A stretch of 61,868 nucleotides of DNA from Deltaproteobacteria bacterium (GTDB lineage: Bacteria; Desulfobacterota; Anaeroferrophillalia; Anaeroferrophillales; Tharpellaceae). Location of the stretch: positions 1 through 61,868 of the forward strand of contig DAOVTG010000001.1 in NCBI GenBank assembly GCA_030633185.1. The letters run 5' to 3'. The position numbers were made by a program, and so were the translations under genes. Every line of letters starts with the position of its first letter. Positions within the stretch are counted from its first letter, which is position 1. This document shows positions 27,079 to 49,424 of this stretch, one piece after another. The notes beneath the pieces were generated by a model. It did no database searches. It saw nothing but the letters and a program-made list of their open reading frames with translations, and was not told the origin of the DNA.

Positions 27079-29181
27079 TCAAACATAGGTGCTGATATCG
27101 CGGAAATTCAGTACCAGGATAGGTTTTCCGGTACCGACCACGGCGGTTCCGGTGAAGGTCTGGTTGTTTTTTAGAAATTCATGGTCAAATTGGGAGACCA
27201 CGACCTTGACTTTGAATTTAATACCATGAACACCACAGGCCAAGCGGCGTTGTTGTTCATCTTCAACGATAATGATGCGTTCAGATTTTTGCCCGTTAGT
27301 TACACAATTTAAAAACTGACCCATATCTATGAAGGGGAGCAAGGCTCCTCGGTAGTCAAAAAAATTGTTCTCCTGGAAAGATGAGAGGCTGATATCGTCA
27401 ACATTCATGACTTCCACCAGGGAGCAATATTCAATTCCATAGGCCTGGTCGCCGAGTTCAACCAGTTGTACATCTCTGGTTTGATTGCCCATATCCAGAG
27501 GCAAAAAGAGGTCAAGAACGGTACCCTCTCCAAAGGTCGAGGTGAGTTGCAGACGTCCACCGGCTGATTCAATCGTTGTGCGTACCACGTCCATACCGAC
27601 GCCGCGACCGGAAACACTGGTAACCTCTTTGTTGGTAGAAAAACCGGCGGCAAAAATCAATTGGTTTACGGCCTGGTCATCTAGGTTATCATCTGCCGTG
27701 ATCAACCCTTTAGAGATGGCCTTGGCTCTGATTTTGGCCGTATCGAGCCCCTTTCCATCATCTTTGATACTGATTTTCAGCAGATCGTCAGCCCGGCTGG
27801 CCAGGATTAACAACTTTCCCTGAGCTGGCTTGCCGCTGTTTTCCCGTTCCGTTGGGGTTTCGATACCGTGATCCACCGAGTTGCGGACGATATGAACCAG
27901 AGGATCATTAAGGGATTTGACCAGGCTGCGGGGTATTTCAATCTCTTCGCCGCCAAGTTCAACTGCAATATTTTTACCTAACTCCTCGGCAAGCTTGGAG
28001 ACTACCGAAGGCAGACGTTGAAAAACATCTCTCAAGCGGCGATTATTAAGGCTCGAGACTTTGGCTTCAAGATTGTTGACGTTATGATCAAGATCAGTAT
28101 AGCTATCTTTTAGATGTTTACGGTAGGTTGTTGGGATATGTTTGCCCATCTCCTGAACCAGATTTTCCAGGGTATTACGATTTGCCACCAGGGCGCCGAC
28201 ATTATGAGACACCTCTTCTAGGATCTTGCCCGGTACGCGGAAAAATTCCTCTTTTTCCGGTTGTTGTTTAGTCGTAGTTTCAGCTATTGACGAATCCACT
28301 TTTGCTTTGCTTTCGACCTCTTTTTCAGGCTCTTTTTCCTTCCAGGTAATCTCGGCATCTATGGCAATACCTTTTTCCCAAAAATAGGCAAAGGCTTGCT
28401 CTATGACCTCAGGCATGGTGTCATAGACATCAAAGAGGGTCTCCCATTCAAGCATTTTTTCACCATTGGTGAGGTCAGCCTGAAGACTCTTCTGGTCGCT
28501 GAAAAGCGAGACTATATCATATTTGGCAAAGAGATCTGCCGGGCCATTACGAGCCAGATCCTCAAGCACCGTCAGTTGTAGTTGTACCATCTTGGTGACA
28601 TCTTTGCCCGCCAGTATGACTTTTTCCAAATCCTTGAAATTAACTGCCAGTTGTTGTTGATCTGCGCCTGAAAGCTTGACCATTAAGGCTCTTATCTCGG
28701 TAACTGCCGGCAATAGAGTGTCGCTGCCGATTTCATTTTCATCAGTTGTGAGTCTATCCTTAAGTTCCTCTATCAAAGTGATAAAACTTTCCAGAGAGCC
28801 CTCTTCCTGGCGTAAGTCACTTAAGGCCTGCAAAGCTTCGGCATAAGTCGGCAGATGTAGAATGCCGGGATCGTCGGCCTCTTGTACGGCCTCGGTCATA
28901 AGATCCATACTGGTAAGCAGGGCCTCAGTCTCCGGCTGATTAAGACCATCCTTCATCTCCTGCTTGTCCCGGACAAAATCTTCTACTTTATGGACATATT
29001 GGGAAAAATCAAAGAGATCAAGAAAACTACTGGTTCCTTTAAGGGTATGAAGGCAGCGGAAAATGGCGTCAACTCCATTGGCGTCACATTCACCACTTCC
29101 CAACTCATCCCTGGCATCATCGAGCAGGGTGAGTGCTTCTTGCATAAAACCTTCTAGCAGTTGTGGGTCTACCTGGCTCAT
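27079..29181 (-). CDS. cheA: CheA-type histidine kinase, third paralogue (Hpt, long linker, dimerisation, HATPase_c, CheW-like)
   Basis: P1 FRCLHTLKGTSSFLD, P4 LVHIVRNSVDHGIE...GRGVGMDVV, C-terminal CheW-like P5. Confidence 0.8.
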   Translation of the reverse strand: MSQVDPQLLEGFMQEALTLLDDARDELGSGECDANGVDAIFRCLHTLKGTSSFLDLFDFSQYVHKVEDFVRDKQEMKDGLNQPETEALLTSMDLMTEAVQEADDPGILHLPTYAEALQALSDLRQEEGSLESFITLIEELKDRLTTDENEIGSDTLLPAVTEIRALMVKLSGADQQQLAVNFKDLEKVILAGKDVTKMVQLQLTVLEDLARNGPADLFAKYDIVSLFSDQKSLQADLTNGEKMLEWETLFDVYDTMPEVIEQAFAYFWEKGIAIDAEITWKEKEPEKEVESKAKVDSSIAETTTKQQPEKEEFFRVPGKILEEVSHNVGALVANRNTLENLVQEMGKHIPTTYRKHLKDSYTDLDHNVNNLEAKVSSLNNRRLRDVFQRLPSVVSKLAEELGKNIAVELGGEEIEIPRSLVKSLNDPLVHIVRNSVDHGIETPTERENSGKPAQGKLLILASRADDLLKISIKDDGKGLDTAKIRAKAISKGLITADDNLDDQAVNQLIFAAGFSTNKEVTSVSGRGVGMDVVRTTIESAGGRLQLTSTFGEGTVLDLFLPLDMGNQTRDVQLVELGDQAYGIEYCSLVEVMNVDDISLSSFQENNFFDYRGALLPFIDMGQFLNCVTNGQKSERIIIVEDEQQRRLACGVHGIKFKVKVVVSQFDHEFLKNNQTFTGTAVVGTGKPILVLNFRDISTYV

Positions 29182-29666
29182 ATCTTCTCCTCATGGTTGA
29201 ATGTTTGAACCATGTCCAACCAATATCGGTGTCGGCTATACATTGTATTAATGGCCTTGGCCAGCTCACCTGGTTTTATGGGTTTAAGGAAAATATAGGT
29301 TGCTCCACAACGTTGAGAACGGCTGACAACTTCGAGCGTGTTATGGGATGTAACCACGATAAAATAGCAGCTAGGTCGTTTTAGATGGAGTCGCTTGATA
29401 AGTTCAAAGCCATCGATATATGGCATCGAGATATCTGTGATCAGCAGGTGATACGGATTTTTGAGAAAATCCTGCATAGCCAGAACCGGATCGTTAAACG
29501 TTGTACAGGTGAAACCGTGTTTTTTTAAAATTGCTGAGAGCTGTAAAGTAATACTGGGATCGTCATCGACGACCATAATGTTTAATGCAGATTTCGGGTT
29601 ACGAATCTCGGACGGAGTCAACTCTTTTTCTACTTTAGCTGAAGTTGACTTATTAGTTTTTTTCAT
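29178..29666 (-). CDS. Single-domain response regulator (REC) with ~30-aa N-terminal extension
   Basis: IMVVDDDPSI, LLITDISMPYIDG, LKP. ATGA-type overlap with the downstream cheA paralogue. Confidence 0.8.
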   Translation of the reverse strand: MKKTNKSTSAKVEKELTPSEIRNPKSALNIMVVDDDPSITLQLSAILKKHGFTCTTFNDPVLAMQDFLKNPYHLLITDISMPYIDGFELIKRLHLKRPSCYFIVVTSHNTLEVVSRSQRCGATYIFLKPIKPGELAKAINTMYSRHRYWLDMVQTFNHEEKI

Positions 29667-29707
29667 GTTTAATGCCCTCCAAATATGTACAACTTTTTGA
29701 TCCTAAT

Positions 29708-30046
29708 TCAGAAAATATTTTTAAATTCCTCAAAATTTTGGATAAGTTCTGGGATCAGTTTTTCGGCTGTATTATAATCTTCAGTTTTCCCTGACTGTTC
29801 GATAGCTTCAGCGCTATCTCTTAAAGCCAAGGCCCCAGCGTTGGCAGCTCCACCTTTGATGAAATGAGCATGACTTTTTATCTCCGGCCCCATCTTGTCA
29901 ATAATAGCCTGTTGCAGGAGCTCTATTTTTTCTTCAGTGGATTGTAAAAAAACCGGGACAATCTCATTCATTAGATCTTCATCATCCATGCAGCGCTGCA
30001 ATAATCCCTCTCGATCAAAAATTACTGATTCATTTTCACTTTGCAT
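29708..30046 (-). CDS. Stand-alone Hpt phosphotransfer protein
   Basis: 112 aa, all-helical, SHAHFIKGGAANAGA phospho-His motif. Confidence 0.75.
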   Translation of the reverse strand: MQSENESVIFDREGLLQRCMDDEDLMNEIVPVFLQSTEEKIELLQQAIIDKMGPEIKSHAHFIKGGAANAGALALRDSAEAIEQSGKTEDYNTAEKLIPELIQNFEEFKNIF

Positions 30047-30059
30047 TGTTTTTTGCTCC

Positions 30060-30764
30060 TTATAAATTGGGCAAACTTATTTTAAAACACAGCCCTGTGG
30101 AAGAGCGATTTTCCACCTCAAGCTTGCCCTTTAGTCGGGAAACCGCCTGGCGACAGAAGGGCAGGCCCAGACCGACTCCGCGATAACAGCCCAACCTTGA
30201 ACCCTCTTTTTGATAATAGTTATCAAAAATGTAGGGTAACTGTTCCGCTGGTACTCCGGGGCCTTCATCCTCAATCTCCACAATGATACCGCCCTTTATT
30301 TCTATTTCAGTGTTAATCCAGACCCGGCTGCCGGGGCTGGAATATTTGATACTGTTAATTAGTAGATTGTTGAGTATTCGTTGGAATAGCTTTGCATCAG
30401 TTCGGGAAACCAGTTGGCGATTGCTGTTTCCCAACACCAGTTCCACATCCTTTTCCAGGCTGAGAAGCATCGGTATTGCCAACATTTTCGGCAGTGCTTC
30501 TTGCCAATCTATCTCAGTGATTTCCAGCGTAATATCTTGAGATTGCATCTTGCCAAGATCAAGAATATCTTGAAGCATCATCCGGCTAAAATCCAGAGCC
30601 TGATCACAACTGTTAACCAGATTTTGATGAAGTTTATTGGCACCATCATAGCGCCCTCTTTGCAAGAGCCCGACAATGGTTTGAAACGAGGCCAGGGCGG
30701 GTTCCAGGTCATGTACGAGAAAAGCGAGTTCAATTCGCGAATCCACAGCTTGTTGTTTTTTCAC
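30060..30764 (-). CDS. Small cytoplasmic HisKA/HATPase_c histidine kinase
   Basis: H-box LAFLVHDLEPAL, N-box LNNLLINSIKYS, G-boxes EDEGPGV and GVGLGL. The GTG at 30764 (GAGGA 4 nt upstream, 10 nt after the cheV stop) is preferred; the tracked ATG at 30842 would overlap cheV by 68 nt. Confidence 0.7.
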   Translation of the reverse strand: MKKQQAVDSRIELAFLVHDLEPALASFQTIVGLLQRGRYDGANKLHQNLVNSCDQALDFSRMMLQDILDLGKMQSQDITLEITEIDWQEALPKMLAIPMLLSLEKDVELVLGNSNRQLVSRTDAKLFQRILNNLLINSIKYSSPGSRVWINTEIEIKGGIIVEIEDEGPGVPAEQLPYIFDNYYQKEGSRLGCYRGVGLGLPFCRQAVSRLKGKLEVENRSSTGLCFKISLPNL

Positions 30765-30774
30765 ATAGTCCTCT

Positions 30775-31656
30775 TTACAGTATTTTTTCAATTTCACCGA
30801 TGAGCTCTTCAATATCAAGTTTGGAAACATGGGCGTTGGCACCTACTTCACGAGCCCTATCTTTCATGCCAATATCGCCGATTGATGAGTAGACGATTAC
30901 CGGGGTTTTCGGTCTCGCCTCTTTAATTAACTTGGTCAGGCTCAAGCCTTCAAGTTGTGGCATCTCGACATCGGTGATTACCAGAGCCCAATCCTCATGT
31001 TCATGAAAAATGTTCAAGGCCTGTTTGCCGTCTTTGGCCGTAATGATTTCAAAACCCATTTCGGAGAGCTCCACGGCCAGCATATCCCTTACAGCCTGGG
31101 AATCCTCGGCAATAAGTACCTTGCGTCCGGCCCCCGTAATCCGGCAATCCTGGGCTTTATTCAGCTCCTGGGTTCTGATCTCCGGGCTGAGCTCTAAAAT
31201 TATTTTTTCATAATCAAGGAGCAGGATATTGGTCTTGTCATCTGGTCTAACGATGCCAATAACGTAAGGACTGCCCAGGTTACCAAGTACCTCTTCGGCG
31301 TCAAAGACCCGCTCCCAGAGAATAGTGTGCAGGTAGTGAACCTTGTCGATAAAAAAACCGTTTTGCCGACGAAAAAATTCGGTAATCAAGATCCGTCCCC
31401 CTCGGGGTTTATACTCTTGATCGGGATCACGCATTTTCAAGAAAACGGCAAGATCAATAATCGGTACCACTAAACCCTGCTCCTCAATGAGCCCGGACAC
31501 CGCCGGATGGCTGTTAACCACGCCTGTCAACTGCTGCGGGGCACTGATTACCCGGCTGGTTTTGAGTACATTGAGACCAAAATGCAAACCGGCGCTGGAA
31601 AACTCCATTATTTTTAATTCATTGGTGCCTGACTTCAGATATGAACCCGGTTCCAT
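30775..31656 (-). CDS. cheV: CheV-like coupling protein (CheW domain plus REC)
   Basis: N-terminal CheW-like fold (LKIMEFSSAGLHFGLNVLKTSRVI...) and C-terminal REC (VLIAEDSQAVRD...VITDVEMPQLEG...SK). Confidence 0.8.
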   Translation of the reverse strand: MEPGSYLKSGTNELKIMEFSSAGLHFGLNVLKTSRVISAPQQLTGVVNSHPAVSGLIEEQGLVVPIIDLAVFLKMRDPDQEYKPRGGRILITEFFRRQNGFFIDKVHYLHTILWERVFDAEEVLGNLGSPYVIGIVRPDDKTNILLLDYEKIILELSPEIRTQELNKAQDCRITGAGRKVLIAEDSQAVRDMLAVELSEMGFEIITAKDGKQALNIFHEHEDWALVITDVEMPQLEGLSLTKLIKEARPKTPVIVYSSIGDIGMKDRAREVGANAHVSKLDIEELIGEIEKIL

Positions 31657-31717: not shown

Positions 31718-32116
31718 TTATGAAATCCCGAGATTATGTAATTCTTGAGTTAATTTCTCATGAAAAATTGGTTTTATCAGATAACCGTCGCATTGTGCAT
31801 CCCTAAAAGAGTGCCTGGCAGTTTTCATATCATCTTGAGCCGTAATCATTAAAATTTTAGATCGATTCTGGGCAAAAATTGCGTGTTCATGTTCGTGTTT
31901 TCTGATTTTTTTTGCCAAGTCCAAACCAGTATCACCTGGAGGCATGGTTATGTCAAGGCAGATAAGAGAAAATGGGCTCTTGTTATCGATTGCCATTTTG
32001 GCAATGATCCAGGCCTCTTTTTCACAAGATGCCAAATAACAATCGCCATAAGGTGAAAGCATTTTGTGTAAAATTAAACGGGTAGCTATTTCATCTTCAG
32101 CTATAAGTATTTTCAT
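31718..32116 (-). CDS. Single-domain response regulator (CheY-like, divergent)
   Basis: MKILIAEDEIATR, LICLDITMPPGDTG, LIKP. Confidence 0.75.
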   Translation of the reverse strand: MKILIAEDEIATRLILHKMLSPYGDCYLASCEKEAWIIAKMAIDNKSPFSLICLDITMPPGDTGLDLAKKIRKHEHEHAIFAQNRSKILMITAQDDMKTARHSFRDAQCDGYLIKPIFHEKLTQELHNLGIS

Positions 32117-32134: not shown

Positions 32135-34477
32135 TTATATCAGTTTATGGGTGTTGAGGATTAAAATCAGTCGTCCATTACCAAGGATTGAAACTCCGTT
32201 GAAAACATCAATATCTGCAAGCACAGGAGGTAAGGGTTTCATAACAATTTCCATGTTGCGAACAAATTTATCCACAATGATACCAAATTCGCTATCTTTG
32301 CTTCTGATAATCACCAGAAAAACCTCATCAAGCTCGTTGAGCTGTTGCCGTCTCCGCTGGCAATCTTTTCCTCCGGTTAACAGTGTGCTAACAAATGAGA
32401 CTGGAAGTACTTTATCACGGTAATGGAACAGCATATTTTCACCTGTACCACGAATTGAGGCCGGGTGAATTTTAATTGCCTCCACAACATTTTCAAATGG
32501 AAGCCCATAGTTGAGTCCGCAAATCTCAACTAGCAAAACCGTGCTAATGCCCATTGAGGCCGGAATTGTCAGGGTTAACAGTGAGCCTTTTCCCGGTTCG
32601 GAACTGACCTTTACATCCCCGTCAAGAGCGTCGATGGAGGAACGCACGACATCCATTCCCACGCCGCGACCGGAAAGATCTGTAGATTTGTCCATGGTAG
32701 AGAGCCCGGCTTTGAAGATAAGGGCAAGAATTTCCGGTTCATCCATACTCTCTACATCAATCCCGTCTTTTTTCGCCTTGGCCTTTAGTTTTTTCTGGTT
32801 AATACCAGCGCCGTCATCAATAATCCGAATAACAATATTACCGTTCTCCTGGCTGGCGGCCAGGGTAATAGTACCTTTCTCTGATTTGCCGGCGGCTCTG
32901 CGGACTTCGGGTGTTTCAATTCCATGATCGCAGGAGTTGCGAATAAGATGGATCATGGGGTCGGTAAGAGTGTCGGCCACTTTTTTATCAATTTCAGTCT
33001 CTTCACCCTGGAAAACAAGATCTATCTGTTTCTTCTTTTTTCTGGAAATATCACGAACAATACGGGTGAATTTTTGAAAAATAGTTTTAATCGGTACCAT
33101 CCGCAGATCCATGATGCCATGATGCATATCATTAACCAGCCGGGTAAAGTCGTGGAGGTTATCGCTTAATGCCTTCATCGCATCACCAGCAATTTTATCA
33201 TCAAGTCCGGCGAGCAGATACTCGTAAGAGTTCCTGCTTACCAACATCTCTCCAATCAGGTTCCCGAAGTTTTCAATCTTTGTTTCATCGACTTTCATAG
33301 TACGTATTTGATTGTTTTTTGAAAGAGCTTGCAAGTCTGCCGCTCCGGCTACTTCCATGATTTTTTGTTGTTGTAAAGCCCGGTCAATATCTGCGGGTTC
33401 AACTTTGCCCTGTTCCACCAGGATCTCTCCCAAAGCTTTCTGCTCTCCCAGCGCGGCATCCACATCTGCCCGGCTGATTTTGCCTTCTGCAACCAGTATC
33501 TCTCCAATTGGCTGTGGCCCTTTGACAAGGCCATCGGCAAAGTTAATAATCTCTTGCAAAGTTTCGAGAAAATCGGTTTCACTGATCTTTAGCATATCAT
33601 TTGCCAGATCAATAAGAAGGGCCAGGGTTGGTAATGAGATCTCCGCAAGAGCTGAAGATATATCGACCAAAGCCAGACTGATAATCTTTTGTTGCTCAGC
33701 GGATAAAGGTGAGATGTTGTTTTCAACAATGATGTCTCGTTGCCGGATAAGCGTTTCTATAAATGTTATCCTGACTTCGTACTCTTCCTTCGCCAGCAGG
33801 ACAAGACTTTCCTGGATCACGGGATCAACAAGCTCAGTTTGTACTCCTGAAATTTTAATTGATCGAAGTTTTTCTACGACCTCTGATTCAGGTTTTTTGC
33901 TGGCAAAAAGATCTTGCAAAGAGCTACCATAATTGACAATGGCATCAATGATTTTGTCAATCTCATGTCCGGTGGTCGAGAGATTACTGTTTTCCAGTTT
34001 CTCAATATCTTCATGGAACTCAGTCAAGGCAAGTTTGACACAAGAGTAGAAGATATGATCAAGCTTCAGCTCTTTGGATGATAAAAGTAAATCTTTTTCA
34101 TCTTGTTGATATGTGGCTTTAAACTGTTCAACAAGTTCAAGGTTGACTACCGGCGAATCACCAATGCTGGCTTTTTGGAGCATGTTTACAATGTAATCAT
34201 TACCTGACAGGGTTAAATCAATAATCTGTGAGGTAACGACAATTTTTTTATTGCGTAAAGCATCAAGCATCCCTTCAAGATGATGGGCAAAATCAGAGAC
34301 CGTTGAGAGGCCAAAAAAACCAGCTGTGCCTTTTACAGTGTGAATCCCTCGGAAAATGGCGTCAAGAATGGAGAGTTCCTCCGGGTTATTCTCAATGAGT
34401 AACAGGTCAGATGCAACTTTTTCTAAAATTTCATTTGATTCTTGAATAAATTCAAGTAATTCATTGTCAGGGTTCAT
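32135..34477 (-). CDS. cheA: CheA histidine kinase, second paralogue, with two tandem MshEN-like 24-25-aa repeats before the dimerisation domain
   Basis: P1 FRGIHTVKGTAGFFG; repeats PIGEILVAEGKISRADVDAALGEQ / ALGEILVEQGKVEPADIDRALQQQ; P4 MIHLIRNSCDHGIE...GRGVGMDVV; P5 CheW-like. Confidence 0.9.
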   Translation of the reverse strand: MNPDNELLEFIQESNEILEKVASDLLLIENNPEELSILDAIFRGIHTVKGTAGFFGLSTVSDFAHHLEGMLDALRNKKIVVTSQIIDLTLSGNDYIVNMLQKASIGDSPVVNLELVEQFKATYQQDEKDLLLSSKELKLDHIFYSCVKLALTEFHEDIEKLENSNLSTTGHEIDKIIDAIVNYGSSLQDLFASKKPESEVVEKLRSIKISGVQTELVDPVIQESLVLLAKEEYEVRITFIETLIRQRDIIVENNISPLSAEQQKIISLALVDISSALAEISLPTLALLIDLANDMLKISETDFLETLQEIINFADGLVKGPQPIGEILVAEGKISRADVDAALGEQKALGEILVEQGKVEPADIDRALQQQKIMEVAGAADLQALSKNNQIRTMKVDETKIENFGNLIGEMLVSRNSYEYLLAGLDDKIAGDAMKALSDNLHDFTRLVNDMHHGIMDLRMVPIKTIFQKFTRIVRDISRKKKKQIDLVFQGEETEIDKKVADTLTDPMIHLIRNSCDHGIETPEVRRAAGKSEKGTITLAASQENGNIVIRIIDDGAGINQKKLKAKAKKDGIDVESMDEPEILALIFKAGLSTMDKSTDLSGRGVGMDVVRSSIDALDGDVKVSSEPGKGSLLTLTIPASMGISTVLLVEICGLNYGLPFENVVEAIKIHPASIRGTGENMLFHYRDKVLPVSFVSTLLTGGKDCQRRRQQLNELDEVFLVIIRSKDSEFGIIVDKFVRNMEIVMKPLPPVLADIDVFNGVSILGNGRLILILNTHKLI

Positions 34478-39030: not shown

Positions 39031-39387
39031 TCAACCAACCAGCATCTTTACATGTAAAACCAGGGTATTAGGTTTAACCGGCTTGACGATATAAAGATTG
39101 GCTCCGGCCAGGATAGCTTTCTCCTTGTTGGCGGCCTCGGCCTGGGTCGAGATCATGATGATTGGCGTCTCATTATCACTTTGTCGATATTTCTCGACAA
39201 AAACAATACCATCCATATTGGGCATATTGATATCCGAGAGGATAAGATCGTACTTATTGCTCAGGGCTTTTTCCAGAGCTTCGACCCCGTCCATGGCTCC
39301 ATCCGCTTTAAAACCGGCAGCTTTAAGCAAATTTGTATGAAAATTCCTGACAAAACGGGAATCGTCAACTACGAGTACTTTTTTCAT
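39031..39387 (-). CDS. cheY: Chemotaxis response regulator CheY
   Basis: 118 aa, VLVVDDSRFVR, LILSDINMPNMDG, VKP. Confidence 0.9.
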   Translation of the reverse strand: MKKVLVVDDSRFVRNFHTNLLKAAGFKADGAMDGVEALEKALSNKYDLILSDINMPNMDGIVFVEKYRQSDNETPIIMISTQAEAANKEKAILAGANLYIVKPVKPNTLVLHVKMLVG

Positions 39388-41427: not shown

Positions 41428-42495
41428 CTAGCCTACTGCACTAATAATCTCATCAGCGATATCCCAACTTGGTGCCACCACGTCAGCTCCGCCTCGTTCG
41501 ATAGCCTCTTTGGGCATGCCGAAGACGATGGCAGTTTCGTCGGATTCGGCGATCGTGCGACCGCCAAGTTCTCTGATTCGAACCATGGCATCGGCACCAT
41601 CATCACCCATGCCGGTCATCAGAACGCCGACGGTATCATCTCCAAATATCTCCATAACCGAGTCCATCATCACCTCTACCGATGGGACAAAGAGATGTTT
41701 GGGACGTACCGGAGTCCGGATAACTAGTTTGTGGCCCGGTCTTCTAAACAGGGTCAGGTGACGTCCGCCAGCAGCTAGATAGATGGTGCCGGGTTTTAGC
41801 TCCATACCGGTCTCGGCATGAACACAGTTCATGGGACAGGCTTGATCTAAACGTTGAGCAAAAGAGGCGGTAAAAGCGGCCGGCATATGTTGAACCATGA
41901 TAATCGCGGCATTAAGATCGGCCGGAATAAAAGGCAATACGTCAAAAATCGTCTTTGGGCCGCCAGTTGATATACCAATAACTATAGCTTTAAAACCTAA
42001 TCCTCTGGTTTTGCCTGCGACCGGTTTGCGGCTTGGCCTGAAGCGTTGTCCGGGGCTACGTTTAGGATCGGTTCGGTGGGGGCGTAATTTGTCCAGGGTG
42101 CCCTGGCTGGTGGCCGCTTTAAGTTTGGCAATAAGTTCTCGGGCGACCTCCTCCATATTAACCGAGACGGTGCCGCCGGGTTTGGCGATATAGTCAAAGG
42201 CACCCAGAGCCATTGACTCAAAAGTGGCCTCAGCTCCCTCCTCGGTCAGGGAAGATACCATAAGAACCGGAGCAATCTTCTCTTCAACAATGATCTGCAT
42301 GGCGCTGATACCATCCAGACCCGGCATATTGATATCCATGGTAATGACATCGGGCCGCAGCTCGCGGGCCTTGGCCACGGCGTCATTACCATCTCGGGCC
42401 GCAGAGATAACTTTGAAACCGCGATCCGATTCAATTATTTTCTTTAAACTCCGCCGCATCAGGGCGGAGTCATCACAAATTAGTACCTTTTTCAT
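41428..42495 (-). CDS. cheB: Chemotaxis protein-glutamate methylesterase CheB (REC plus CheB_methylest)
   Basis: REC (VLICDDSALMRR, VITMDINMPGLDG) and esterase core (IGISTGGP, MVQHMP, MTGMGDDGA). Confidence 0.9.
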   Translation of the reverse strand: MKKVLICDDSALMRRSLKKIIESDRGFKVISAARDGNDAVAKARELRPDVITMDINMPGLDGISAMQIIVEEKIAPVLMVSSLTEEGAEATFESMALGAFDYIAKPGGTVSVNMEEVARELIAKLKAATSQGTLDKLRPHRTDPKRSPGQRFRPSRKPVAGKTRGLGFKAIVIGISTGGPKTIFDVLPFIPADLNAAIIMVQHMPAAFTASFAQRLDQACPMNCVHAETGMELKPGTIYLAAGGRHLTLFRRPGHKLVIRTPVRPKHLFVPSVEVMMDSVMEIFGDDTVGVLMTGMGDDGADAMVRIRELGGRTIAESDETAIVFGMPKEAIERGGADVVAPSWDIADEIISAVG

Positions 42496-42551: not shown

Positions 42552-42718
42552 TCGCTTTGCCCTGCTTCGCAAGGGGACACCGCTCAGATCGGCGATGGGC
42601 TTTCAGCCCGCGCCTGGAGCAATGTCCCCGTTCTGGGGCAGGTCGGGGACATTGCTCCAAGGCAGGGCGCCAGCCCAAGACGGTCTGAGCGGTGTCCCCT
42701 TTTAAGAGGGCGAAGCGA
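42552..42718. repeat. 167-nt GC-rich nested palindrome (long imperfect hairpin) between the triple-CheW gene and cheB
   Basis: Outer arms TCGCTTTGCCCT / AGGGCGAAGCGA; GGGGACACCGCTCAGA (42573-42588) / TCTGAGCGGTGTCCCC (42684-42699); inner GGAGCAATGTCCCC (42616-42629) / GGGGACATTGCTCC (42645-42658). Confidence 0.75.
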
Positions 42719-42756: not shown

Positions 42757-44715
42757 CTATTCATCTATCTTCATCTTTTTAACTGGTTTTTTTTGGGGTG
42801 CGGTTTTGGCCCGGGGTTTGACCTTTTTCTTCTCCATCGCCGCTATCTCTTTTTTATCATTGGTACTGAGTATCTCATTAATATCAAGCAGGAGAACCAT
42901 GCGTTTGCCTTGGTTGAGTTGACAAACTCCTTCTATAAAGCGGTTTTCGGTGTCACCGGTGACAATGCCTGGAGTCGGGGCGATATCGGCCTTGGGCAGG
43001 CGTAGAACTTCATTGACCTTGTCGACCCGCAGTCCGGTGCGACGGCCTTCAATATCAACGATGATAATTCGGGTGGAGTCATCTTGGTCACGAGATTCGA
43101 GACCAAACAAAGTTCGGATATTAAGCACCGGGATGACATTGCCGCGCAGGTTGGTGACCCCGTCAATAAAGGCCGGAGATTTTGGTACCTGAGTGATCTC
43201 TTCTAAGCGATTAATCTCTTGGACCTGCATGATCCGGACACCATACTCCTCTTTGTCAACAATAAAGGTGACCAGTTGTTCTTCATCCATATCTTTTTGG
43301 GCCAGGCTGATCTCATTTTCAGTTTCGGCATCAGCAGTTTTTTTTACAGCTTCACTCATCTTGCCAAGCTCTTCACTCTCCTCATGGCTGATCAATGATG
43401 ACTCTTCCATGATCATAATCAAGCGTTTGCCATTGTCGAGTTTGGCGACCCCTTTCAACTCTTTTTTGGCTGAGGAAGCAGCCCAGGGGGGGGCATCGAT
43501 AGTCGATTTTGGGATTCGCAAAACCTCGTTTACCGAGTCGACAATGAAACCGACATGAATATCACCCGTCTCCACTACCAGAATGCGCTGGAACTCATTG
43601 ATATTTTTTGCCAGCTTATTCTTGATTGCGATAAATTCTGAGAGGAGAATTTTTTCCAGAGGGGTAATATGCTCTTCGAGATAGAGGACGGCTTCGTCCT
43701 GAGAATGGCTGCGGAGTTTCAGGGCCTCGGCCCCAAACTCATGAAAATTGATGTGGGGGATTCTGATATCATTTATCAGGTCACCGACATCGCCAGAGCG
43801 ATCCTTGGTCAACCATTGACCTAAGGCACATTTAGTCGGATCCAGAGCCCCGTTAAACGGGGCGTTGCTCTGCAAAGACTGTTTAAGATCCTTGAGCCAT
43901 TGTTCATGGATAACCATTATCTCATTGATCTCGTTATGGAACTGTTCTATCAGGGAGGTGTTGCCCAACATGGTCCGCAGATCGAGAATCGGCAGGAGTT
44001 GGTTGCGAATGGTGAGTAGCCCTCGAACATAGTTTGCGGCATTGGGTACTTCGGTAATCTCCCCCACCCGAAGGATCTCCCGCACCCGGTTTATATCGAA
44101 AGCGTACTCCTCGTCTGCGACCTTAAAGGATATAAGTTGTTCTTCATCGATGTTTTTTTCAACCGCATTTATTGCCGTTTTCCCAGCCTGTAGAGCCGCT
44201 TGCTTTTGATCTGACTTAACCTCTTTCGTTTGAACCTGCACAACTTCATCGAGATCCAGGATGAGAATGAGACGAGCCCCATCGTTCATCTTGACTACGC
44301 CGGAGAGGAACTCTCGATCTACCCCTTTGCAAACTGCCGGCGGTTCTTCCATCTGCTCTTTTTTGGTATGCAGTACCTCGCGGACATCATCGACAATCAG
44401 GCCGGTGGCTGTGGTACCAGTTTCAATTACTAATAGTCGGGTGCTGTCATCGGCCTCTTTATGTTCCAGACCAAAACGTTGCCGGCTATTTATGGCGGGC
44501 AACACCGAACCTCGCAAGTTACAGATCCCGGCGACATAGTCGGGGCTCTGGGGAATCGGGGTAATATCCGGTACCCGGACAATCTCCCGCACCGTATTGA
44601 TATCTACGCCAAACTCCTCATCAGCCAGGGCAAAAACCACGAGTTGGCCTTCGGCTGAATCGAGAGATTGGGCGGTTTCCATATTTTCAGACATAATTAA
44701 CTCCGTTTTAATCAT
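42757..44715 (-). CDS. Triple CheW-domain scaffold with a CZB (chemoreceptor zinc-binding) domain inserted in the middle CheW domain
   Basis: Three CheW-like units (QLVVFALADEEFGVDINTVREI, QLISFKVADEEYAFDINRVREI, QLVTFIVDKEEYGVRIMQVQEI). CZB signature H270xxW...C296ALGQW...H321INFH325. An alternative start is the ATG at 44694 (GGAG RBS). Confidence 0.85.
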   Translation of the reverse strand: MIKTELIMSENMETAQSLDSAEGQLVVFALADEEFGVDINTVREIVRVPDITPIPQSPDYVAGICNLRGSVLPAINSRQRFGLEHKEADDSTRLLVIETGTTATGLIVDDVREVLHTKKEQMEEPPAVCKGVDREFLSGVVKMNDGARLILILDLDEVVQVQTKEVKSDQKQAALQAGKTAINAVEKNIDEEQLISFKVADEEYAFDINRVREILRVGEITEVPNAANYVRGLLTIRNQLLPILDLRTMLGNTSLIEQFHNEINEIMVIHEQWLKDLKQSLQSNAPFNGALDPTKCALGQWLTKDRSGDVGDLINDIRIPHINFHEFGAEALKLRSHSQDEAVLYLEEHITPLEKILLSEFIAIKNKLAKNINEFQRILVVETGDIHVGFIVDSVNEVLRIPKSTIDAPPWAASSAKKELKGVAKLDNGKRLIMIMEESSLISHEESEELGKMSEAVKKTADAETENEISLAQKDMDEEQLVTFIVDKEEYGVRIMQVQEINRLEEITQVPKSPAFIDGVTNLRGNVIPVLNIRTLFGLESRDQDDSTRIIIVDIEGRRTGLRVDKVNEVLRLPKADIAPTPGIVTGDTENRFIEGVCQLNQGKRMVLLLDINEILSTNDKKEIAAMEKKKVKPRAKTAPQKKPVKKMKIDE

Positions 44716-44718
44716 TCT

Positions 44719-46644
44719 TTATACATTCTGCATCTCGTCAGCTTGACTGGCGATCTCTTCGATGGCTTCGGCGATATTTTCCATGCCTTTATTGCCTTGA
44801 GTTGCTGCCGTGGAGGCCTCACTTGCGGCCTTAGTCGCAAATTCCGCCGCCTCGGCAATCTCAGCTACCGCCTTATTGACCTGAGCCACAGCTCCCAAGG
44901 CCTGTTTGGCGGTACCATTGATATCCTCAATGCTGGTCTGAACGACATCGGTCTCTTTTTCAATTCGCTCCAGGTTGGAGGAGGATTCTTTGGCATTTTC
45001 CACATCTTGAAGCGAAGTCTTGCCCGCTAGATCAATATCTGCAGCAACAGTGGTGATCTGATCTCGCATCTGGCGTACCATGTCTTTGATCTTGTCAGCA
45101 TTAGTAGATGAATCATCAGCCAAAGTGCGGATATCAGCGGCAACTACAGAAAAGCCGCGGCCAAATTCACCGGCGCGCGCCGCTTCGATGGAGCCGTTAA
45201 CAGCCAACATATTGGTTTGCAATGTAACGTTAACGATTTGATCGACAATTTTGTCAATACGGTTGGTGCGATCCTGAAGGTTTTGGATGTTTCGAGATGA
45301 ATCCAGGGAGGCATTGGCGGCCTTGGAGATGTTGGCGATCAGATTGCCGACATTAACCTTATTGGCGGCCAAAATTTTCTTCAAAGTTTCAATTTTTTCA
45401 GCCGCATCCGTGGACTCTACATCGACATTTTTGGCTCCCTCTTCGACGCGAGATCCCATCTCTATGCATTTTTCAGAAATTTTTGTCTGGTTCTCAGCCG
45501 ATTTGGCGATCTGCTCGATAGCCGCCATAATCTGGCCTGCCGAAGTTGTTGATTCTTCGATGTTGGCGGAGAGCTCTTCGGCGGCCGCAGCCACCTCTTC
45601 CGCCGATTTCTGGGTGTCGGTGGCATTTTTCAGGGAATCGGAGAGTTCTGCGAGCCCTTCGGCAGCGGTCTGCATCTCGGCAAACGCTTTGTTTTGCTCA
45701 TCTAAAGACTTATTGGACTCCTCGCAGGCACTGGCTTGTTCATTGGTTGATCGGCCAATCTCCTCTGCGGCCTTAAAGAACTCGTTGGCACCGTCCAGAA
45801 CCTCCGCAGCTCCTTGATCCACCTTTTTGCTGCCGGTATTTATGGCCAAAAAGATCTCGCTTATCTGATTTAAGTCCTCAGTGATCTGTTTGGATTTTTC
45901 CATCTCTTCACGGCCGGCATTGCCGGAGGCATCCACATCATTAACGACCTGTTGAACCTGTTCTTTGATCTCATCGACCACGTTACGAATGTTACGGGCT
46001 GAGCTTTCTGAAATTTCGGCCAGGTTGCGCACCTCATCCGCAACTACGGCAAAACCGCGGCCATGCTCTCCGGCTCGGGCTGCTTCAATTGCCGCATTTA
46101 AGGCTAGTAAGTTGGTCTGGTCGGCAATGCGGACAACGGTGCCGACAATTTCACCGATCTCTTCAGAATTTTGTTCCAGAACCTTGATCATCTTGGTTGA
46201 CTCAAGATTGCCTTCAACCGATTTTTTAACTCCGGAGATCAAGGTGTCGATGTTTTTATTAATGGAGTCGATCAACTCCTGTAGAGTTGCGATTTTTTCC
46301 AGGTTGGCCTTGCTTAAACCTAAACAGTTCTCGCTGGCCTCCAGGATCTGTTCAATTTCAGTTTTGGAGTTTTCGGCTGCCGAGGCCGCATGTTCAGATT
46401 TGACGGAGATATCTTCCATGTTGCCTGTCAACTCTTCCGAGGAGGCACCAGCTTGTTCCAGAGAAGCCGACATCTCCTCGACTGCCGTTGCCATACGCTC
46501 GGCTAAGGCCTGAGTTCGGGCCAAAGTTCGGGCTTGAGTTTTGGCCTGGGCCTGTTTTTTTGCTGCCGAACGCTTGGCGGCGAGATCTTCGTGGTCTTCG
46601 TTTTTACCGGTAATGCCTGTGGGACGCGCTAGTTTTCTTGCCAT
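44719..46644 (-). CDS. Soluble methyl-accepting chemotaxis protein with two tandem MCP-signal (MA) domains and a basic N-terminus
   Basis: No TM segment. Two complete hairpin tips, [34 protein letters not shown] and [34 protein letters not shown], lie exactly 300 aa apart. The start MARKLARP at 46644 has AAAGGAG upstream. Confidence 0.85.
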
Positions 46645-46754
46645 TTTAAACTCCTTTTTACTCTTTAGATTACGGAAAAGAGGTGGGGGCAATCCCGCCA
46701 TTTTCCTTAAGTTATCGAACTTTTACAAACTGAATAGTTACTTTTTGTTATCTT

Positions 46755-48242
46755 TTACAATATCTGGATACCGCATTCTGCATTGGCTTTACCGCTATCC
46801 AGATCTACGGCGTTGACGGAGAGAACTCCATTGGGGTCGATACTGAAAGTGACATCAATATTGGGCTCTCCTTGGGCTTTCTCTGCGTCCATTTCCAACT
46901 GAAACACACCCAGCGAAGTGAACTCTTCTGACCCTTCATGGCCTCTATCCTGCATGACATGAATAGCGACTTCCGGTTGGTTGTTAGCGGTTGTCGTAAA
47001 AAGTCTGGTCTCAGCGCAAGGGTAGGGGGTGCCTGCGGCGATCAAGGGGATAAAAATGCCTTGATCATCCTCCAAACCAAGATTGTGAGAGGTGATATCG
47101 TGAAATTCCATGCCTGCAATTTCATCGTTCAAAATGCCTGCCAGAATCCCGGCCCCTCGGGCCACCGCTTCATCAGGGTTGACTTGGCGTTTAAAAAGTC
47201 GCTCACGGGTTTCAGCCATGGTCTCCGGATCGGGGCTTAAAAAGCGGCATACCATCTCTTCTACCGCCGGAATCCGGGTGGCACCGCCGACCAGTATGAC
47301 TGAATCCACCCAGTTCGGTTCAAGCTCTGCTCGGGCAAACGTCTCGATTAGATATTTTTCAATATCATGGATAATATCTTTGCTGATCTCGCTGAATTTA
47401 TCCCGACTCAAACTTTGATTCAGATGGATGGGGCCCTCGTCGCTTACAGCAATATAAGGAATCATGACGGTGGTCTCGGTAGAGGAGGAGAGGTCGATTT
47501 TGGTCTTTTCGGCATAAATCACGAGTTGCTGAAAGGCGATCGGGTCGTTACGCAGGTCATAGGGCGAATTAAGGTCGAAAGTTTCAAGGGTATGCTCAAT
47601 AATTTGTCGGTCAAAATTTATGCCGCCAACCGTGGTTGCTCCACCCACCCCACGAACTCTGAAAACTTTGTCGCTGTATTCCATCAAGGTTATATCCAGA
47701 GTGCCGCCGCCCAGATCCAGCACCAAAAGTCGAGCTTGCTCTTGAGTACTGCCCAGGCCATAAGTGAGAGCTGCAGCCGTGGGCTCATTGAGTAATTTGT
47801 GAACTTTGATGCCAGCTATAGTGGCGGCCCGCAGAGTGGCTTGACGTTGATTGTCATTAAAGTAGGCCGGTACCGTGATTACCGCATCGGTGATCTCTTG
47901 CTGCAGGTACTGCTCAGCGCAGTTCTTGAGATGGCTGAGAATTAAAGCTGAAATCTCTTCCGGCAGCAAACTCCGGTCGCCAATTGTATAGGGCTCCGTT
48001 GTCCCCATCATAAGTTTGACATTGCTGACTGTGGAGTCGGCATTGAGTACGGCCTGATTTAGAGCCATTTCGCCGACAATAATCTCCTGTTCAGATTTGA
48101 AACAAACCACTGATGGTGTCGTCCGGCTGCCACGTTCATTCGGGATGATTCGCGGTTGTCCATTTTTGATAAATGAGATCAGGGAATTGGTGGTGCCAAG
48201 ATCGATCCCGACAATTCTTGGCTTCGTCGTTGGTTTAGTCAT
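46755..48242 (-). CDS. Hsp70/DnaK-family protein lacking the C-terminal helical lid
   Basis: IVGIDLGTTNS phosphate-1 motif, VLDLGGGTLDITL, ILVGGATRIP, followed by a beta-sandwich-like region only (about 495 aa). Confidence 0.8.
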   Translation of the reverse strand: MTKPTTKPRIVGIDLGTTNSLISFIKNGQPRIIPNERGSRTTPSVVCFKSEQEIIVGEMALNQAVLNADSTVSNVKLMMGTTEPYTIGDRSLLPEEISALILSHLKNCAEQYLQQEITDAVITVPAYFNDNQRQATLRAATIAGIKVHKLLNEPTAAALTYGLGSTQEQARLLVLDLGGGTLDITLMEYSDKVFRVRGVGGATTVGGINFDRQIIEHTLETFDLNSPYDLRNDPIAFQQLVIYAEKTKIDLSSSTETTVMIPYIAVSDEGPIHLNQSLSRDKFSEISKDIIHDIEKYLIETFARAELEPNWVDSVILVGGATRIPAVEEMVCRFLSPDPETMAETRERLFKRQVNPDEAVARGAGILAGILNDEIAGMEFHDITSHNLGLEDDQGIFIPLIAAGTPYPCAETRLFTTTANNQPEVAIHVMQDRGHEGSEEFTSLGVFQLEMDAEKAQGEPNIDVTFSIDPNGVLSVNAVDLDSGKANAECGIQIL

Positions 48243-48279
48243 TTTAATCAATCAATCCATTATCCAGCTATTCACTAAT

Positions 48280-48669
48280 TTACCAATTTAAAACTGCAAG
48301 ATTTTCCGCAGCTCTCTCATTTTCCGAGTCAATTTTCAGTACCTGTTCAAACATCGCTATGGCTTTTTCTTTGAAACCCAATTCGAAATAGACCAGGCCC
48401 AGGTTGTTCATGGCCTTGATGTTGTTTGGTTGTTGATAATGTACGGCTTGTAAAAAGCCCATGGCATCAATGTAGTTCTCTTTGTTCAAGCAGACCAGCG
48501 CCTGTTGGAACAGATTTTGGATCTGCTGGTCACTTTTTTGTTCTAACTCTTCAATGCGGTGGCGTAAACTTGAAATCTCTTGACTGTTTTCCGGACGCGT
48601 ATCAACTAAGGGCTGGACGCCTTTTTCAAACAGCAACTCTCGAAGAGATATTTTTGCTTTTGCACTCAT
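48280..48669 (-). CDS. Small TPR-repeat protein
   Basis: Coiled N-terminus, then TPR-like units (YIDAMGFLQAVHYQQPNNIKAMNNLGLVYFELGFKEKAIAMFEQVLKIDSEN). The ATG overlaps the parA-like stop (ATGA). Confidence 0.7.
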   Translation of the reverse strand: MSAKAKISLRELLFEKGVQPLVDTRPENSQEISSLRHRIEELEQKSDQQIQNLFQQALVCLNKENYIDAMGFLQAVHYQQPNNIKAMNNLGLVYFELGFKEKAIAMFEQVLKIDSENERAAENLAVLNW

Positions 48670-49424
48670 AATATCTCAATCTTCTGAGTCAGTTTTGCGT
48701 AATCAGAAGCGCCGATACTCTTTTCGTCGTATTCGAAAATTGTTTGACCATGGGCCGGGGCTTCGGCCAAAGTGATATTGGTACGGATGGGAGGTAACAG
48801 TTTGTCCGGGCCAAAAGTTTTCGTGATCTCTTTACCAATCTCCTTGGCCAGTTTGGTGTTTTTATTGTAAAGGGTGGGAATGATGCCGGCCATGCGAAGT
48901 TTCGGATTATAGCTGGCGTTCAACTTGTAAATAACCTGCATCATTTCGGCCAAGCCTTCCATGGCAAGAAAATGCAAAGGCATAGGGATGTAGACCTCGC
49001 GGGCTGCAATAAGGCCGGAAATCATCAATAGCCCCAAGGTCGGCGGCGGATCGATAATAATAAAATCATAATTAACCAACTGGTCGTTCAAATGCTCGGC
49101 CAGTATTATCTCGCTATCTTCCCGGCCGGTATTTTCGAGCTCAAAACCACCCAGTTCACGGGATGCCGGTAAGAGCGAGAGGCCAGCAATATGGCTGGCT
49201 AAAATCACTTCCCCTATGGGCACTCGGTCTAAAAGGACATCGGCCAGGCTGCTTTTGACCATGCCCGGCTTAAAACCCAGACCAATCGTGGTATGGGATT
49301 GGGGGTCGATGTCAACCAATAAGACCCGATGTCCCCGAATGACCAGGCCATGGGCAACATTGACGGCTGTAGTAGATTTCCCACAACCACCTTTACGGTT
49401 GGCAAAGATACAGATTCTGGTCAT
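48666..49424 (-). CDS. ParA/MinD-family deviant Walker-A ATPase at the head of the chemosensory cluster
   Basis: ANRKGGCGKSTTAVNVA (KGGxGKS/T), IIIDPPP Walker B-like. The start MTRICIF at 49424 has GGAGA upstream. Confidence 0.85.
   Translation of the reverse strand: MTRICIFANRKGGCGKSTTAVNVAHGLVIRGHRVLLVDIDPQSHTTIGLGFKPGMVKSSLADVLLDRVPIGEVILASHIAGLSLLPASRELGGFELENTGREDSEIILAEHLNDQLVNYDFIIIDPPPTLGLLMISGLIAAREVYIPMPLHFLAMEGLAEMMQVIYKLNASYNPKLRMAGIIPTLYNKNTKLAKEIGKEITKTFGPDKLLPPIRTNITLAEAPAHGQTIFEYDEKSIGASDYAKLTQKIEIL

Follow-up and report, generated by a model that had tools for sequence, protein, structure and literature searches.

Introduction

What kind of signalling system is encoded by a chemosensory gene cluster that has three CheA kinases, a single receptor predicted to be soluble, and genes for a ParA-like ATPase and an Hsp70 at its head? 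This question is raised by contig DAOVTG010000001.1 of a Deltaproteobacteria bacterium (assembly GCA_030633185.1). The window analysed here is this single contig of a metagenome-assembled genome (MAG), 61,868 bp in length, and the cluster, as delimited from the list of open reading frames (ORFs) and Pfam searches, comprises 18 consecutive minus-strand genes running from position 49424 down to 27079 (~22 kb). The explanation that we prefer, with a probability of roughly 0.7, is a system of the F9 chemosensory class forming a cytoplasmic array, with inputs through a CZB domain and through domains of the cyclic di-GMP (c-di-GMP) binding type, a ParA–TPR–Hsp70 set of proteins concerned with positioning, and an appended module around the third kinase, CheA-3.

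Although F9 was recognised by 2010 and its array was imaged in 2016, the class still lacks an explanation for its stimulus, output and cytoplasmic location. Its signature is the combination of DosM, a receptor that carries a pair of signalling domains, and CheW3, in which three CheW domains are fused, encoded in the order [DosM W3 B. R Y A]; the class is found in ~2% of complete genomes and has spread horizontally (PMC9321776). In Vibrio cholerae, the one organism for which such an array is known, the F9 proteins are arranged in two layers in the cytoplasm, with DosM extending across both baseplates and stabilising the array; deletion of the F9 CheA has no detectable phenotype, and the function of the array is open (PMC7534058).

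Extent and gene content of the cluster

In order of transcription, the first half of the cluster encodes a ParA-like protein, a TPR protein, an Hsp70, a double-signalling methyl-accepting chemotaxis protein (MCP; DosM), CheW3 with CZB, CheB, a HEAT-repeat protein, CheR and CheY, and the second half CheA-1, a HEAT-repeat protein with a receiver (HEAT-REC), CheA-2, the receiver REC132, CheV, a histidine kinase (HK), a stand-alone Hpt, the receiver REC162 and CheA-3. The longer products are DosM (641/660 residues), CheW3 (652), Hsp70 (498), CheA-1 (984), CheA-2 (780) and CheA-3 (700); the TPR protein has 129 residues. The initial annotation, made by reading the sequence, had named the same domain content including three cheA genes, and each named gene was confirmed by Pfam, whereas its total of 20 genes was a miscount, its own list holding 18. 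Features of the cluster are given below with their coordinates on the minus strand; plus-strand genes are marked (+).

The end of the cluster at 49424 is the parA ATG, preceded by GGAGA, and alignments of homologues begin there too; the run of minus-strand ORFs itself extends without a break from 27079 to 49463. Junctions within the cluster range from -8 to +61 nt apart from gaps of 93 and 261 nt, with 3-61 nt for most of them, and no credible ORF was found in the 261-bp gap between cheW3 and cheB, the sole sizeable one. Among the tight junctions pointed out earlier, the overlaps of parA with the TPR gene and of REC162 with cheA-3 (4 nt each) were found as described, but the distance of 2 nt given for cheY and cheA-1 was not, the stop codon of the former and the ATG of the latter being 1 nt apart (TGA-G-ATG).

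For comparison, loci of relatives labelled L001–L021 were used, two of which (L006 and L011) lie on the same contig and represent a 72%-identical relative. The same gene set is syntenic in relatives at protein identities of 45-70%, and it is this recurrence that argues against a chance assembly of genes. The closest clusters in the scanned genome collection are only 46-50% identical in CheA-1. The nearest relative of CheW3, at 90% identity, is annotated as Candidatus Desulfofervidaceae.

Assignment of the core to the F9 class

The core of the cluster (44719-36084) follows the order DosM-W3-CheB-HEAT-CheR-CheY-CheA, which is the published F9 order. DosM (44719..46644) is a soluble receptor bearing a pair of signalling hairpins, seen as two MCPsignal stretches (2.4e-61), and has neither a sensor domain nor a transmembrane segment; the DosM proteins of L008 and L010 can be aligned with it over the full length, and alignment with relatives places its start at M20, i.e., at 46644. 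The gene for CheW3 (42757..44715) begins 3 nt downstream of dosM. Three concatenated CheW domains are recognised in its product by Pfam (CheW 5.9e-106), by alignment with insert-free CheW3 proteins and in an AlphaFold model with three CheW folds (mean pLDDT 74.8, low-confidence linkers), for which the top Foldseek matches were CheW and CheA-P5. The triple CheW/CZB protein of the initial annotation thus stands as described: the CZB domain splits the second CheW domain, hence the four CheW stretches reported by Pfam.

The core continues with CheB (41428..42495; REC and CheB_methylest by Pfam, 66-81% identity in relatives), the HEAT-repeat protein (40338..41405; HEAT_2 2e-22), CheR (39481..40317; CheR 1.1e-57 and CheR_N) and a CheY of 118 residues (CheY118; 39031..39387; Response_reg 2.3e-29), the cognate F9 response regulator, which keeps D12, D13, D57, S87, Y106 and K109 and is 83-91% identical in relatives. 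The same gene order is found in the F9 clusters of Methylosinus and of Sphaerotilus D-507, where the gene between cheB and cheR, left nameless in the published order, is likewise annotated as encoding a HEAT-repeat protein, the protein accessions of the latter reference cluster agreeing with the table in PMC9321776. Judged by signature proteins and gene order, the core appears to belong to the F9 class. As a surrogate for MiST/Wuichet-Zhulin class hidden Markov models, an unbootstrapped neighbour-joining (NJ) tree of CheA cores was used, in which the reference F9 CheAs are the nearest ones to CheA-1 and CheA-2 beyond their own clade (distance 0.58-0.60), with no clear monophyly; the tree is compatible with F9 and is not decisive. 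A match on a Deferribacter megaplasmid (L014) was rejected as not being an F9 cluster.

The C-termini of the two signature proteins are conserved as well. The last residues of DosM are ADEMQN[VM] (44719-44760), the counterpart of which in proteobacterial F9 is ADELQ. For CheW3 (42757-42780), KKMKI[AD]E or a sequence close to it forms the end of most of the Desulfobacterota proteins that were examined. It is possible that these ends are docking peptides, e.g., for CheR/CheB or the TPR protein.

The only receptor of the cluster had been described as cytoplasmic, and this was borne out. No convincing transmembrane segment was found in any of the 18 cluster proteins: DosM has no 19-residue window with a Kyte-Doolittle mean >0.95, and the few windows >1.6 in other cluster proteins are cores of globular domains. 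When the entire contig was translated in six frames, only two MCP tip motifs were seen (46107 and 45207), and both belong to DosM. Pfam searches of all other large ORFs of the contig returned no MCP, flagellar, cheZ, cheC, cheX or cheD gene, in agreement with the absences noted initially; one pilT-like ATPase gene is found 5 kb off the cluster.

These absences bear on the possibility that the locus serves ordinary flagellar chemotaxis, with membrane receptors and flagellar genes residing on other contigs. F9 is formally of the flagellar type, 97% of F9-bearing species being flagellated by the presence of flagellar genes (PMC9321776); CheY118 retains every CheY signature residue including Tyr106, and the MAG is incomplete. 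On the other hand, deletion of the F9 CheA gave no chemotaxis phenotype in V. cholerae, and F9 nearly always occurs alongside another F class, which is the one that navigates (PMC9321776, PMC7534058). Moreover, the sole receptor in the cluster is a DosM of the scaffold type, and the same variant of the system occurs in Desulfonema limicola. The latter is a gliding filament that is not known to have flagella. Taking both sides together, we consider a role in ordinary flagellar chemotaxis quite improbable.

The initial annotation had regarded membership of a well-characterised flagellar class as an argument against its own interpretation. The class found here is such a class in name only: F9 bears the label 'F', but it is poorly characterised, and no motility phenotype of it is known. 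The dedicated cytoplasmic array that had been proposed is supported by homology, DosM and triple CheW being the F9 signatures, but the locus is not an unclassified supercluster, its core having a place in a named class.

A CZB module within CheW3

A CZB (chemoreceptor zinc-binding) four-helix module lies within the second CheW domain of CheW3 (residues 255-375; 43591..43953), where the Pfam CZB model matches with 3.8e-10 and its 40.4 bits exceed the cutoff of 29.4. Alignment with the insert-free CheW3 proteins of L001 and L008 reveals an insertion of ~120 residues by which the two halves of this domain are parted, and in the AlphaFold model the helices of the insert span residues 255-283, 297-303, 315-335 and 339-370 with pLDDT values of ~88-94; a Foldseek search with the CZB insert alone gave only non-significant four-helix-bundle matches. 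The full 3His/1Cys motif, Hxx[WFYL]x21-28Cx[LFMVI]Gx[WFLVI]x18-27HxxxH, is present at residues 270-325, with H270, C296, H321 and H325 as the zinc site.

In a Desulfurivibrionaceae MAG (JAQYVV010000005.1; L001:1532-3796) a CZB domain (6.3e-12) is located between the signalling modules of DosM, and the CheW3 of that locus has no insert. CZB has thus changed its place from one component of the array to another among sister lineages, and its alternation between CheW3 and DosM argues for an input module of the array. The CheW-CZB architecture is known but unstudied, and a sensor borne on CheW has been demonstrated in Treponema (PMC10653840).

Domains of the c-di-GMP-binding type in CheA-1 and CheA-2

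CheA-1 (36084..39029) has the Pfam architecture Hpt – degenerate Hpt-like – Hpt – three MshEN – P3 – P4 – P5, with HTIKG at residues 47 and 312, which confirms as canonical the two Hpt domains of the initial annotation. CheA-2 (32135..34477) is shorter, with Hpt – two MshEN – P3 – P4 – P5. In both kinases repeats of the form xhGEILVxxGKhxxxxhxxALxxQ are found directly before the dimerisation domain, namely three tandem 24-residue MshE-type motifs in CheA-1 (residues 501-574; 37317..37538; 69.1 bits with NCBIfam NF053729.1, the curated cutoff of which is 38) and two in CheA-2 (33365-33511; 47.0 bits with the same model). Matches in the PDB to the region of CheA-1 include PilF (4.6e-12), the MshE N-domain (2.6e-3) and also PilB, the N-domains of which bind c-di-GMP. 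NF053729.1 is above cutoff in the CheAs of L001, L008, L017 and L019 too, while neither the motif scan nor NCBIfam detected MshEN in CheA-3. None of the five motifs fits the published relaxed pattern, which begins with R/K/P/N and has a pair of hydrophobic residues behind its central Gly, Lys being the residue that follows Gly here; the c-di-GMP-binding domain of PilF likewise has Gly-Lys at that position.

An Hpt–MshEN_N–CheA architecture was listed by Wang et al. 2016, and an Aeromonas veronii CheA fragment bound c-di-GMP with a Kd of 2.6 uM (PMC5013675). A 2026 preprint still describes as uncharacterised the segment that is inserted in the F9 CheA where P2 gives way to P3. MshEN was considered as a general hallmark of F9 and rejected in this role, the F9 CheAs of Methylosinus and Sphaerotilus being without it and other CheAs, retrieved as distant homologues of CheA-3, having it. 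The latter are 8 of the 120 listed CheA-3 homologues that were scanned, and their MshEN-like motifs lie in the P1-P3 linker with spacers of 3-6 residues. From their sequences, c-di-GMP-binding CheAs look widespread across CheA lineages.

The ParA–TPR–Hsp70 trio

Ahead of dosM the cluster begins with three genes. The first encodes a ParA/Soj-like ATPase (48666..49424; AAA_31 2.7e-45, best PDB match ParA/Soj 1.6e-44) with the deviant Walker-A motif KGGCGKST, which falls under every NCBIfam equivalog cutoff. The second encodes the small TPR protein (48280..48669; TPR_2 2.7e-9), and the third a lid-less Hsp70-family ATPase consisting of a nucleotide-binding domain plus the beta part of the substrate-binding domain (46755..48251; HSP70 3.4e-137). 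The alignment of this Hsp70 to DnaK covers residues 3-496 only, the helical lid being absent; with 493 bits against NCBIfam DnaK cutoffs of 648-1019 it is not a DnaK equivalog, and its closest 120 relatives are all ~500 residues long.

The parA gene is directly upstream of TPR-Hsp70-DosM in L006, L008/9, L010, L017-19 and L021, and a TPR homologue of ~125-140 residues stands behind ParA in every sampled relative. In all nine sampled loci of the Hsp70 family, which come from two phyla and belong to Desulfobacterota and Syntrophomonadaceae, ParA-(TPR)-Hsp70 is found directly ahead of DosM-W3-CheB; the contexts sampled were L006/L011, Desulfonema limicola, three Syntrophomonadaceae-type contigs, L018 and L021, with L004 partial. 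The order in Firmicutes is HEAT-R-Y-A-ParA-x-Hsp70-DosM-W3-B-Y-X-X. A basic peptide at the N-terminus of DosM, MA[KR]KLx[KR]P…TGIT.K, is confined to this trio-bearing subtype and is missing from the DosM proteins of Sphaerotilus and Methylosinus.

That these are unrelated housekeeping genes, for partition and for a chaperone, which happen to lie upstream of the che genes is suggested by the ParA being most like chromosomal Soj/ParA, by the Hsp70 being most like DnaK and by a gap of 53-110 nt between hsp70 and dosM. Yet the trio adjoins DosM throughout the sampled loci although the surrounding che order varies, the Hsp70 is lidless and scores below the DnaK cutoffs, and instead of a parB/parS-type partner parA has the overlapping TPR gene, so that we regard a housekeeping origin as very improbable indeed.

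A combination of a deviant Walker A and its signature lysine with a partner gene next downstream, here the TPR gene overlapping by 4 nt, is what characterises ParA/MinD cargo-positioning ATPases of the PpfA/ParC type, and the ParA is a candidate array-positioning ATPase. The TPR protein is a candidate for the part of a ParB-like adaptor linking ParA with the array. Its N-terminal peptide reads ISL[KR]xLLFxKGV in Desulfobacterota and LGKGLDLLL in Firmicutes, according to the alignments, and we take it to resemble the ParA-stimulating ParB peptide LG[RK]GLxALL, a lead rather than a test. In Rhodobacter, the ParA-like PpfA positions a cytoplasmic array via the N-terminus of the receptor TlpT (PMC5706961), and with this precedent array positioning becomes the most economical reading of the ParA-TPR pair. 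The three unnamed genes in the published order [RYA...DosMW3BYXX] (PMC9321776) are, from the sequences of Syntrophomonadaceae-type contigs with that order, most probably the same trio. A literature search of limited coverage returned no report of ParA or Hsp70 in association with DosM or F9, which is weak evidence of absence.

Two further loci touch on this association. In a hydrothermal-vent metagenome contig (L021:4485-6368) the TPR protein is fused to an N-terminal REC and an NMT1-like domain, giving a protein of 627 residues that keeps the ISLKKMLFDKGV peptide internally; the fusion hints at array positioning under phospho-control. On a plasmid of Methylosinus trichosporium OB3b (L015:16457-17308), a ParA-family gene is located two genes past cheA in a canonical alphaproteobacterial F9 cluster, where there is neither a TPR nor an Hsp70 gene; its product is 33% identical to the ParA of the window (E = 1e-40). 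The association of ParA with F9 may be broader than the trio.

Additional kinases and the CheA-3 module

Behind CheA-1 is the gene for HEAT-REC (34482..36059; HEAT_2 9.4e-13, Response_reg 5.5e-24; Asp intact), which occupies the same place in L011 and L020. CheA-2 is paired with REC132, a single-domain receiver of 132 residues with its acceptor residues intact (31718..32116; Pfam), and a single-domain receiver also follows the second CheA in L002, L003 and L021. In the NJ tree CheA-2 nests in the CheA-1 clade, and by its sequence it is a putative lineage-specific duplicate of the F9 CheA. Layouts with three CheAs are kept in L002-L004 and L021, in which a different, shorter second F9-type CheA and a receiver are located between cheB and the HEAT gene; such layouts recur in Desulfobulbia relatives with ~50% identity.

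The remaining genes make up the CheA-3 module. CheV (30775..31656; CheW 2e-17, Response_reg 3e-21) combines CheW with REC and is also found in L011 and L018. HK260 (30060..30842) is a soluble histidine kinase without a sensor, with the H-box VHDLEP and HATPase_c (3.5e-23); its start codon is uncertain, NCBIfam kinase models aligning from residue ~39 and the orthologues in L011 and L018 being 234-248 residues long. The stand-alone Hpt112 (29708..30046; Hpt 1.3e-12) has HFIKG at 61, with His61 as the phospho-accepting residue, and is absent from L011, the layout of which is that of the window minus CheA-2, REC132 and Hpt. REC162 (29178..29666; Pfam) precedes CheA-3 (27079..29181), for which Hpt – long linker – weak P3 – P4 – P5 was recognised, H-kinase_dim scoring 19.1 bits against a cutoff of 23. 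CheA-3 always stands behind a receiver, the stop codon of which overlaps its own start codon, and this pairing is kept in L001-L004, L011, L012 and L021.

The P1 phospho-His, P4 and P5 are present in all three CheAs, P3 being below cutoff in CheA-3, and P2 was detected in none of the three. All phospho-accepting His residues of the Hpt domains and all six receiver acceptor Asp residues are intact. Since catalytic His, ATPase, P5 and receiver Asp are all kept, the several kinase outputs suggested in the initial annotation are plausible.

The relationship of CheA-3 to the core can be read in another way, as two juxtaposed pathways, i.e., an F9 core with a duplicated kinase and an independent CheV–HK–Hpt–REC162–CheA-3 pathway serving membrane arrays, or another scaffold, encoded elsewhere; the picture of three kinases on one cytoplasmic array would then be wrong for CheA-3. 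CheA-3 forms an orthologous group of its own, with ~25 orthologue clusters at identities of at least 40% and then a large gap to other CheAs (a drop to E~1e-67 and 27-35%); it is restricted to Desulfobacterota-like genomes, no member of the lineage has a detectable dimerisation-domain match, and in the NJ tree it is a separate long branch. The REC–CheA-3 pair is divergent from the core in L001, lies at the beginning of the contig in L012, where it is not followed by F9 genes, and has no F9 genes nearby in L013, and relative to the core the module is placed differently among relatives. In the window, L002-L004, L011 and L021, however, it lies tightly beside the F9 core on the same strand, despite ~45-55% identity and rearrangements between these loci; it includes P5 and CheV yet encodes no receptor itself, and there is no other MCP on the contig. 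Two independent pathways are in our estimate unlikely, and we favour an appended module of the F9 system.

Hairpin and transcription

A near-perfect nested hairpin of ~150 nt (42555..42715; minimum free energy -115.6 kcal/mol, z = -13.2) occupies the gap between cheW3 and cheB and is followed by TTGCTATAAT some 30 nt ahead of the cheB ATG. No Rfam family matches the hairpin, and at the same position relatives have a gap of ~50 bp lacking the hairpin. The idea that it is a repeated mobile element was rejected, the hairpin being unique in the window and four metagenome pattern matches sharing only the pattern. It may be an insertion resembling a miniature inverted-repeat transposable element or a transcript-processing/terminator element. 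A -10-like box is also found in this gap. Scans for sigma-70 promoters and terminators performed no better than with shuffled sequences, no minus-strand terminator was detected in any intergenic gap, and a search with the sigma-54 consensus gave fewer matches than expected by chance.

Proposed functioning of the system and points that weigh against it

In the F9 system proposed here, DosM, with a signalling tip at each end, would bridge two baseplates composed of CheW3 and CheA P5. The result would be a sandwich array in the cytoplasm, free of any membrane, which CheR and CheB would adapt through methylation. As DosM is without a ligand-binding domain, the input must come from elsewhere; candidates are a zinc/redox signal at CZB (HOCl, by analogy with other CZB domains), c-di-GMP at CheA-1 and CheA-2, and soluble receptors encoded elsewhere. 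ParA and the TPR protein would probably serve to place the arrays on the nucleoid or to partition them there, in the manner of PpfA/TlpT in Rhodobacter, the lid-less Hsp70 would probably assemble or remodel the lattice, and the basic N-terminal peptide of DosM would be a likely docking site or handle. Outputs could run in parallel from CheA-1 to CheY118, from CheA-2 to REC132, these two having arisen when the F9 kinase pair was recently duplicated, and from CheA-3 to REC162, with CheV, HK260, Hpt112 and HEAT-REC as modulators or a relay. The appended CheV–HK–Hpt–REC162–CheA-3 set would most likely plug into the same array.

Several points weigh against this reading. The evidence for this organism consists of the genes of one MAG contig. 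The Desulfobacterota clade of CheA-1 and CheA-2 is near the reference F9 CheAs in the unbootstrapped NJ tree, not inside them, and CheA-3 is a deep separate lineage which in L013 has no F9 neighbours. The zinc ligands of the CZB insert are gone in 97 of the 120 closest relatives that have the insert, including the 68%-identical L006 (23 keep the motif), and the insert may be mainly structural. MshEN is missing from alpha- and betaproteobacterial F9 CheAs (Methylosinus, Sphaerotilus); in the kinases of the window its spacers have 1 residue instead of 5 and its first residue is Pro/Ala instead of Arg, and because of these atypical features binding of c-di-GMP may be weak or absent. Finally, the hairpin and the -10-like box may constitute a transcript break, resulting in at least two transcripts; such a split would not make the parts unrelated, the same genes being contiguous in relatives.

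A more specific suggestion can be made only tentatively: that the clusters of Desulfobacterota and Syntrophomonadaceae represent a distinct F9 subtype not described before, in which the array would be an organelle-like cargo that is partitioned and serviced by a chaperone. The ParA, the TPR adaptor with its ParB-like peptide and the lid-less Hsp70 would recognise the N-terminal peptide of DosM, kinase output would be gated by c-di-GMP through MshEN and by a zinc/redox sensor in the baseplate, and several kinases on one lattice would pass the signal to different receivers. If true, it would give F9 concrete inputs and an assembly machinery. In either case the variant makes the action of c-di-GMP on the kinase, the input through CZB and the positioning or assembly by the trio testable in cultured carriers, such as Desulfonema, Syntrophomonas wolfei and strain M19. 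The kind of system is unchanged by these considerations; the sequence shows the gene content, the signatures of the class, the identity of the domains and the conserved synteny, and all functions are deduced from the genome sequence of an uncultured organism.

Genes surrounding the cluster

A hemerythrin – hybrid histidine kinase – REC-REC-GGDEF operon (49691-53074 (+)) is divergent from parA across an AT-rich spacer of 266 bp. Its presence is suggestive given the c-di-GMP-type domains of CheA-1 and CheA-2. Functional coupling of this operon to the cluster was rejected, as neither L010 nor L021 conserves it upstream of parA, and the neighbourhood is a local coincidence or a lead. The pilT-like gene encodes a T2SSE ATPase without the MshEN motifs of the CheA type (54721-55905 (+)) and lies between recA and recX (53677-56357).

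On the other side, two tandem AAA_14/DUF4143 ATPase genes (24467-26992 (+)) adjoin the cheA-3 end of the cluster. In L011 and L013 a REC-HisKA-HATPase kinase follows CheA-3 instead, for which reason the boundary on this side may have been remodelled. Beyond lies a dense run of two-component genes (10057-24418 (+)), including hybrid kinases with PAS and Hpt, a REC-HD-GYP-like protein (HD_5), a Tll0287-like sensor kinase and a PAS-REC-Hpt protein. The contig has the character of a signalling island, with its GC content falling to 0.365 at 16-18 kb, and Rfam and tRNA scans of it revealed no RNA gene.

Comparison with known systems

Cluster I of V. cholerae (DosM VC1403, triple CheW VC1402, CheA VC1397) has the same DosM-CheW3 pair, the same order CheB–unnamed–CheR–CheY–CheA and a likewise sensorless DosM. 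Its published layout, [DosMW3B.RYA.YM], has one CheA and a terminal membrane MCP, and no ParA, TPR or Hsp70 is listed for it (PMC9321776), whereas the window has three CheAs, CheV, an extra kinase and Hpt, CZB in CheW3, and DosM as the sole MCP. The Syntrophomonadaceae-type F9 [RYA...DosMW3BYXX] (Mo et al. 2022) shares the N-terminal peptide of DosM and MshEN in CheA and, judging from metagenome contigs of that type, most probably ParA, a TPR-like protein of ~126 residues and the same lid-less Hsp70. It differs in having HEAT-R-Y-A before the trio, one CheA, CheX/CheC phosphatases and a CheW3 of 523 residues without CZB.

The cytoplasmic array of Rhodobacter sphaeroides carries more than one CheA, in the form of complementary partial CheAs, while the three of the window are all complete. 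The PpfA/TlpT system of Rhodobacter sphaeroides resembles the window in having a ParA-like ATPase within the che locus (PMC5706961), although its cluster has no DosM, triple CheW, TPR adaptor or Hsp70. ParC/ParP of Vibrio likewise consists of a ParA-family ATPase and a small adaptor in a che cluster, with a role in array tethering (PMC7534058, PMC5706961); ParP, however, has a CheW-like domain and acts on polar membrane F6 arrays, in contrast with the TPR partner and the cytoplasmic array proposed here.

As regards the input domains, the CheA of Aeromonas veronii (Wang et al. 2016) likewise has its MshE-type module directly before the dimerisation domain, and the CheAs of the window differ from it in their two or three motifs, 1-residue spacers, Pro/Ala as the first residue and absence of P2. 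Fused sensors on CheW (Treponema denticola CheWS, CheW-CZB) are similar in placing the sensor on the coupling protein rather than on the receptor (PMC10653840), but there it is appended, while in the window CZB is inserted within the middle CheW fold and alternates with a DosM-borne CZB in a sister lineage. In conclusion, the F9 class and its cytoplasmic array are already known, and the idea of an array is not new; what goes beyond the published F9 systems is the ParA–TPR–Hsp70 trio, CZB within the second CheW domain, MshEN in CheA-1 and CheA-2, and the extra kinases.

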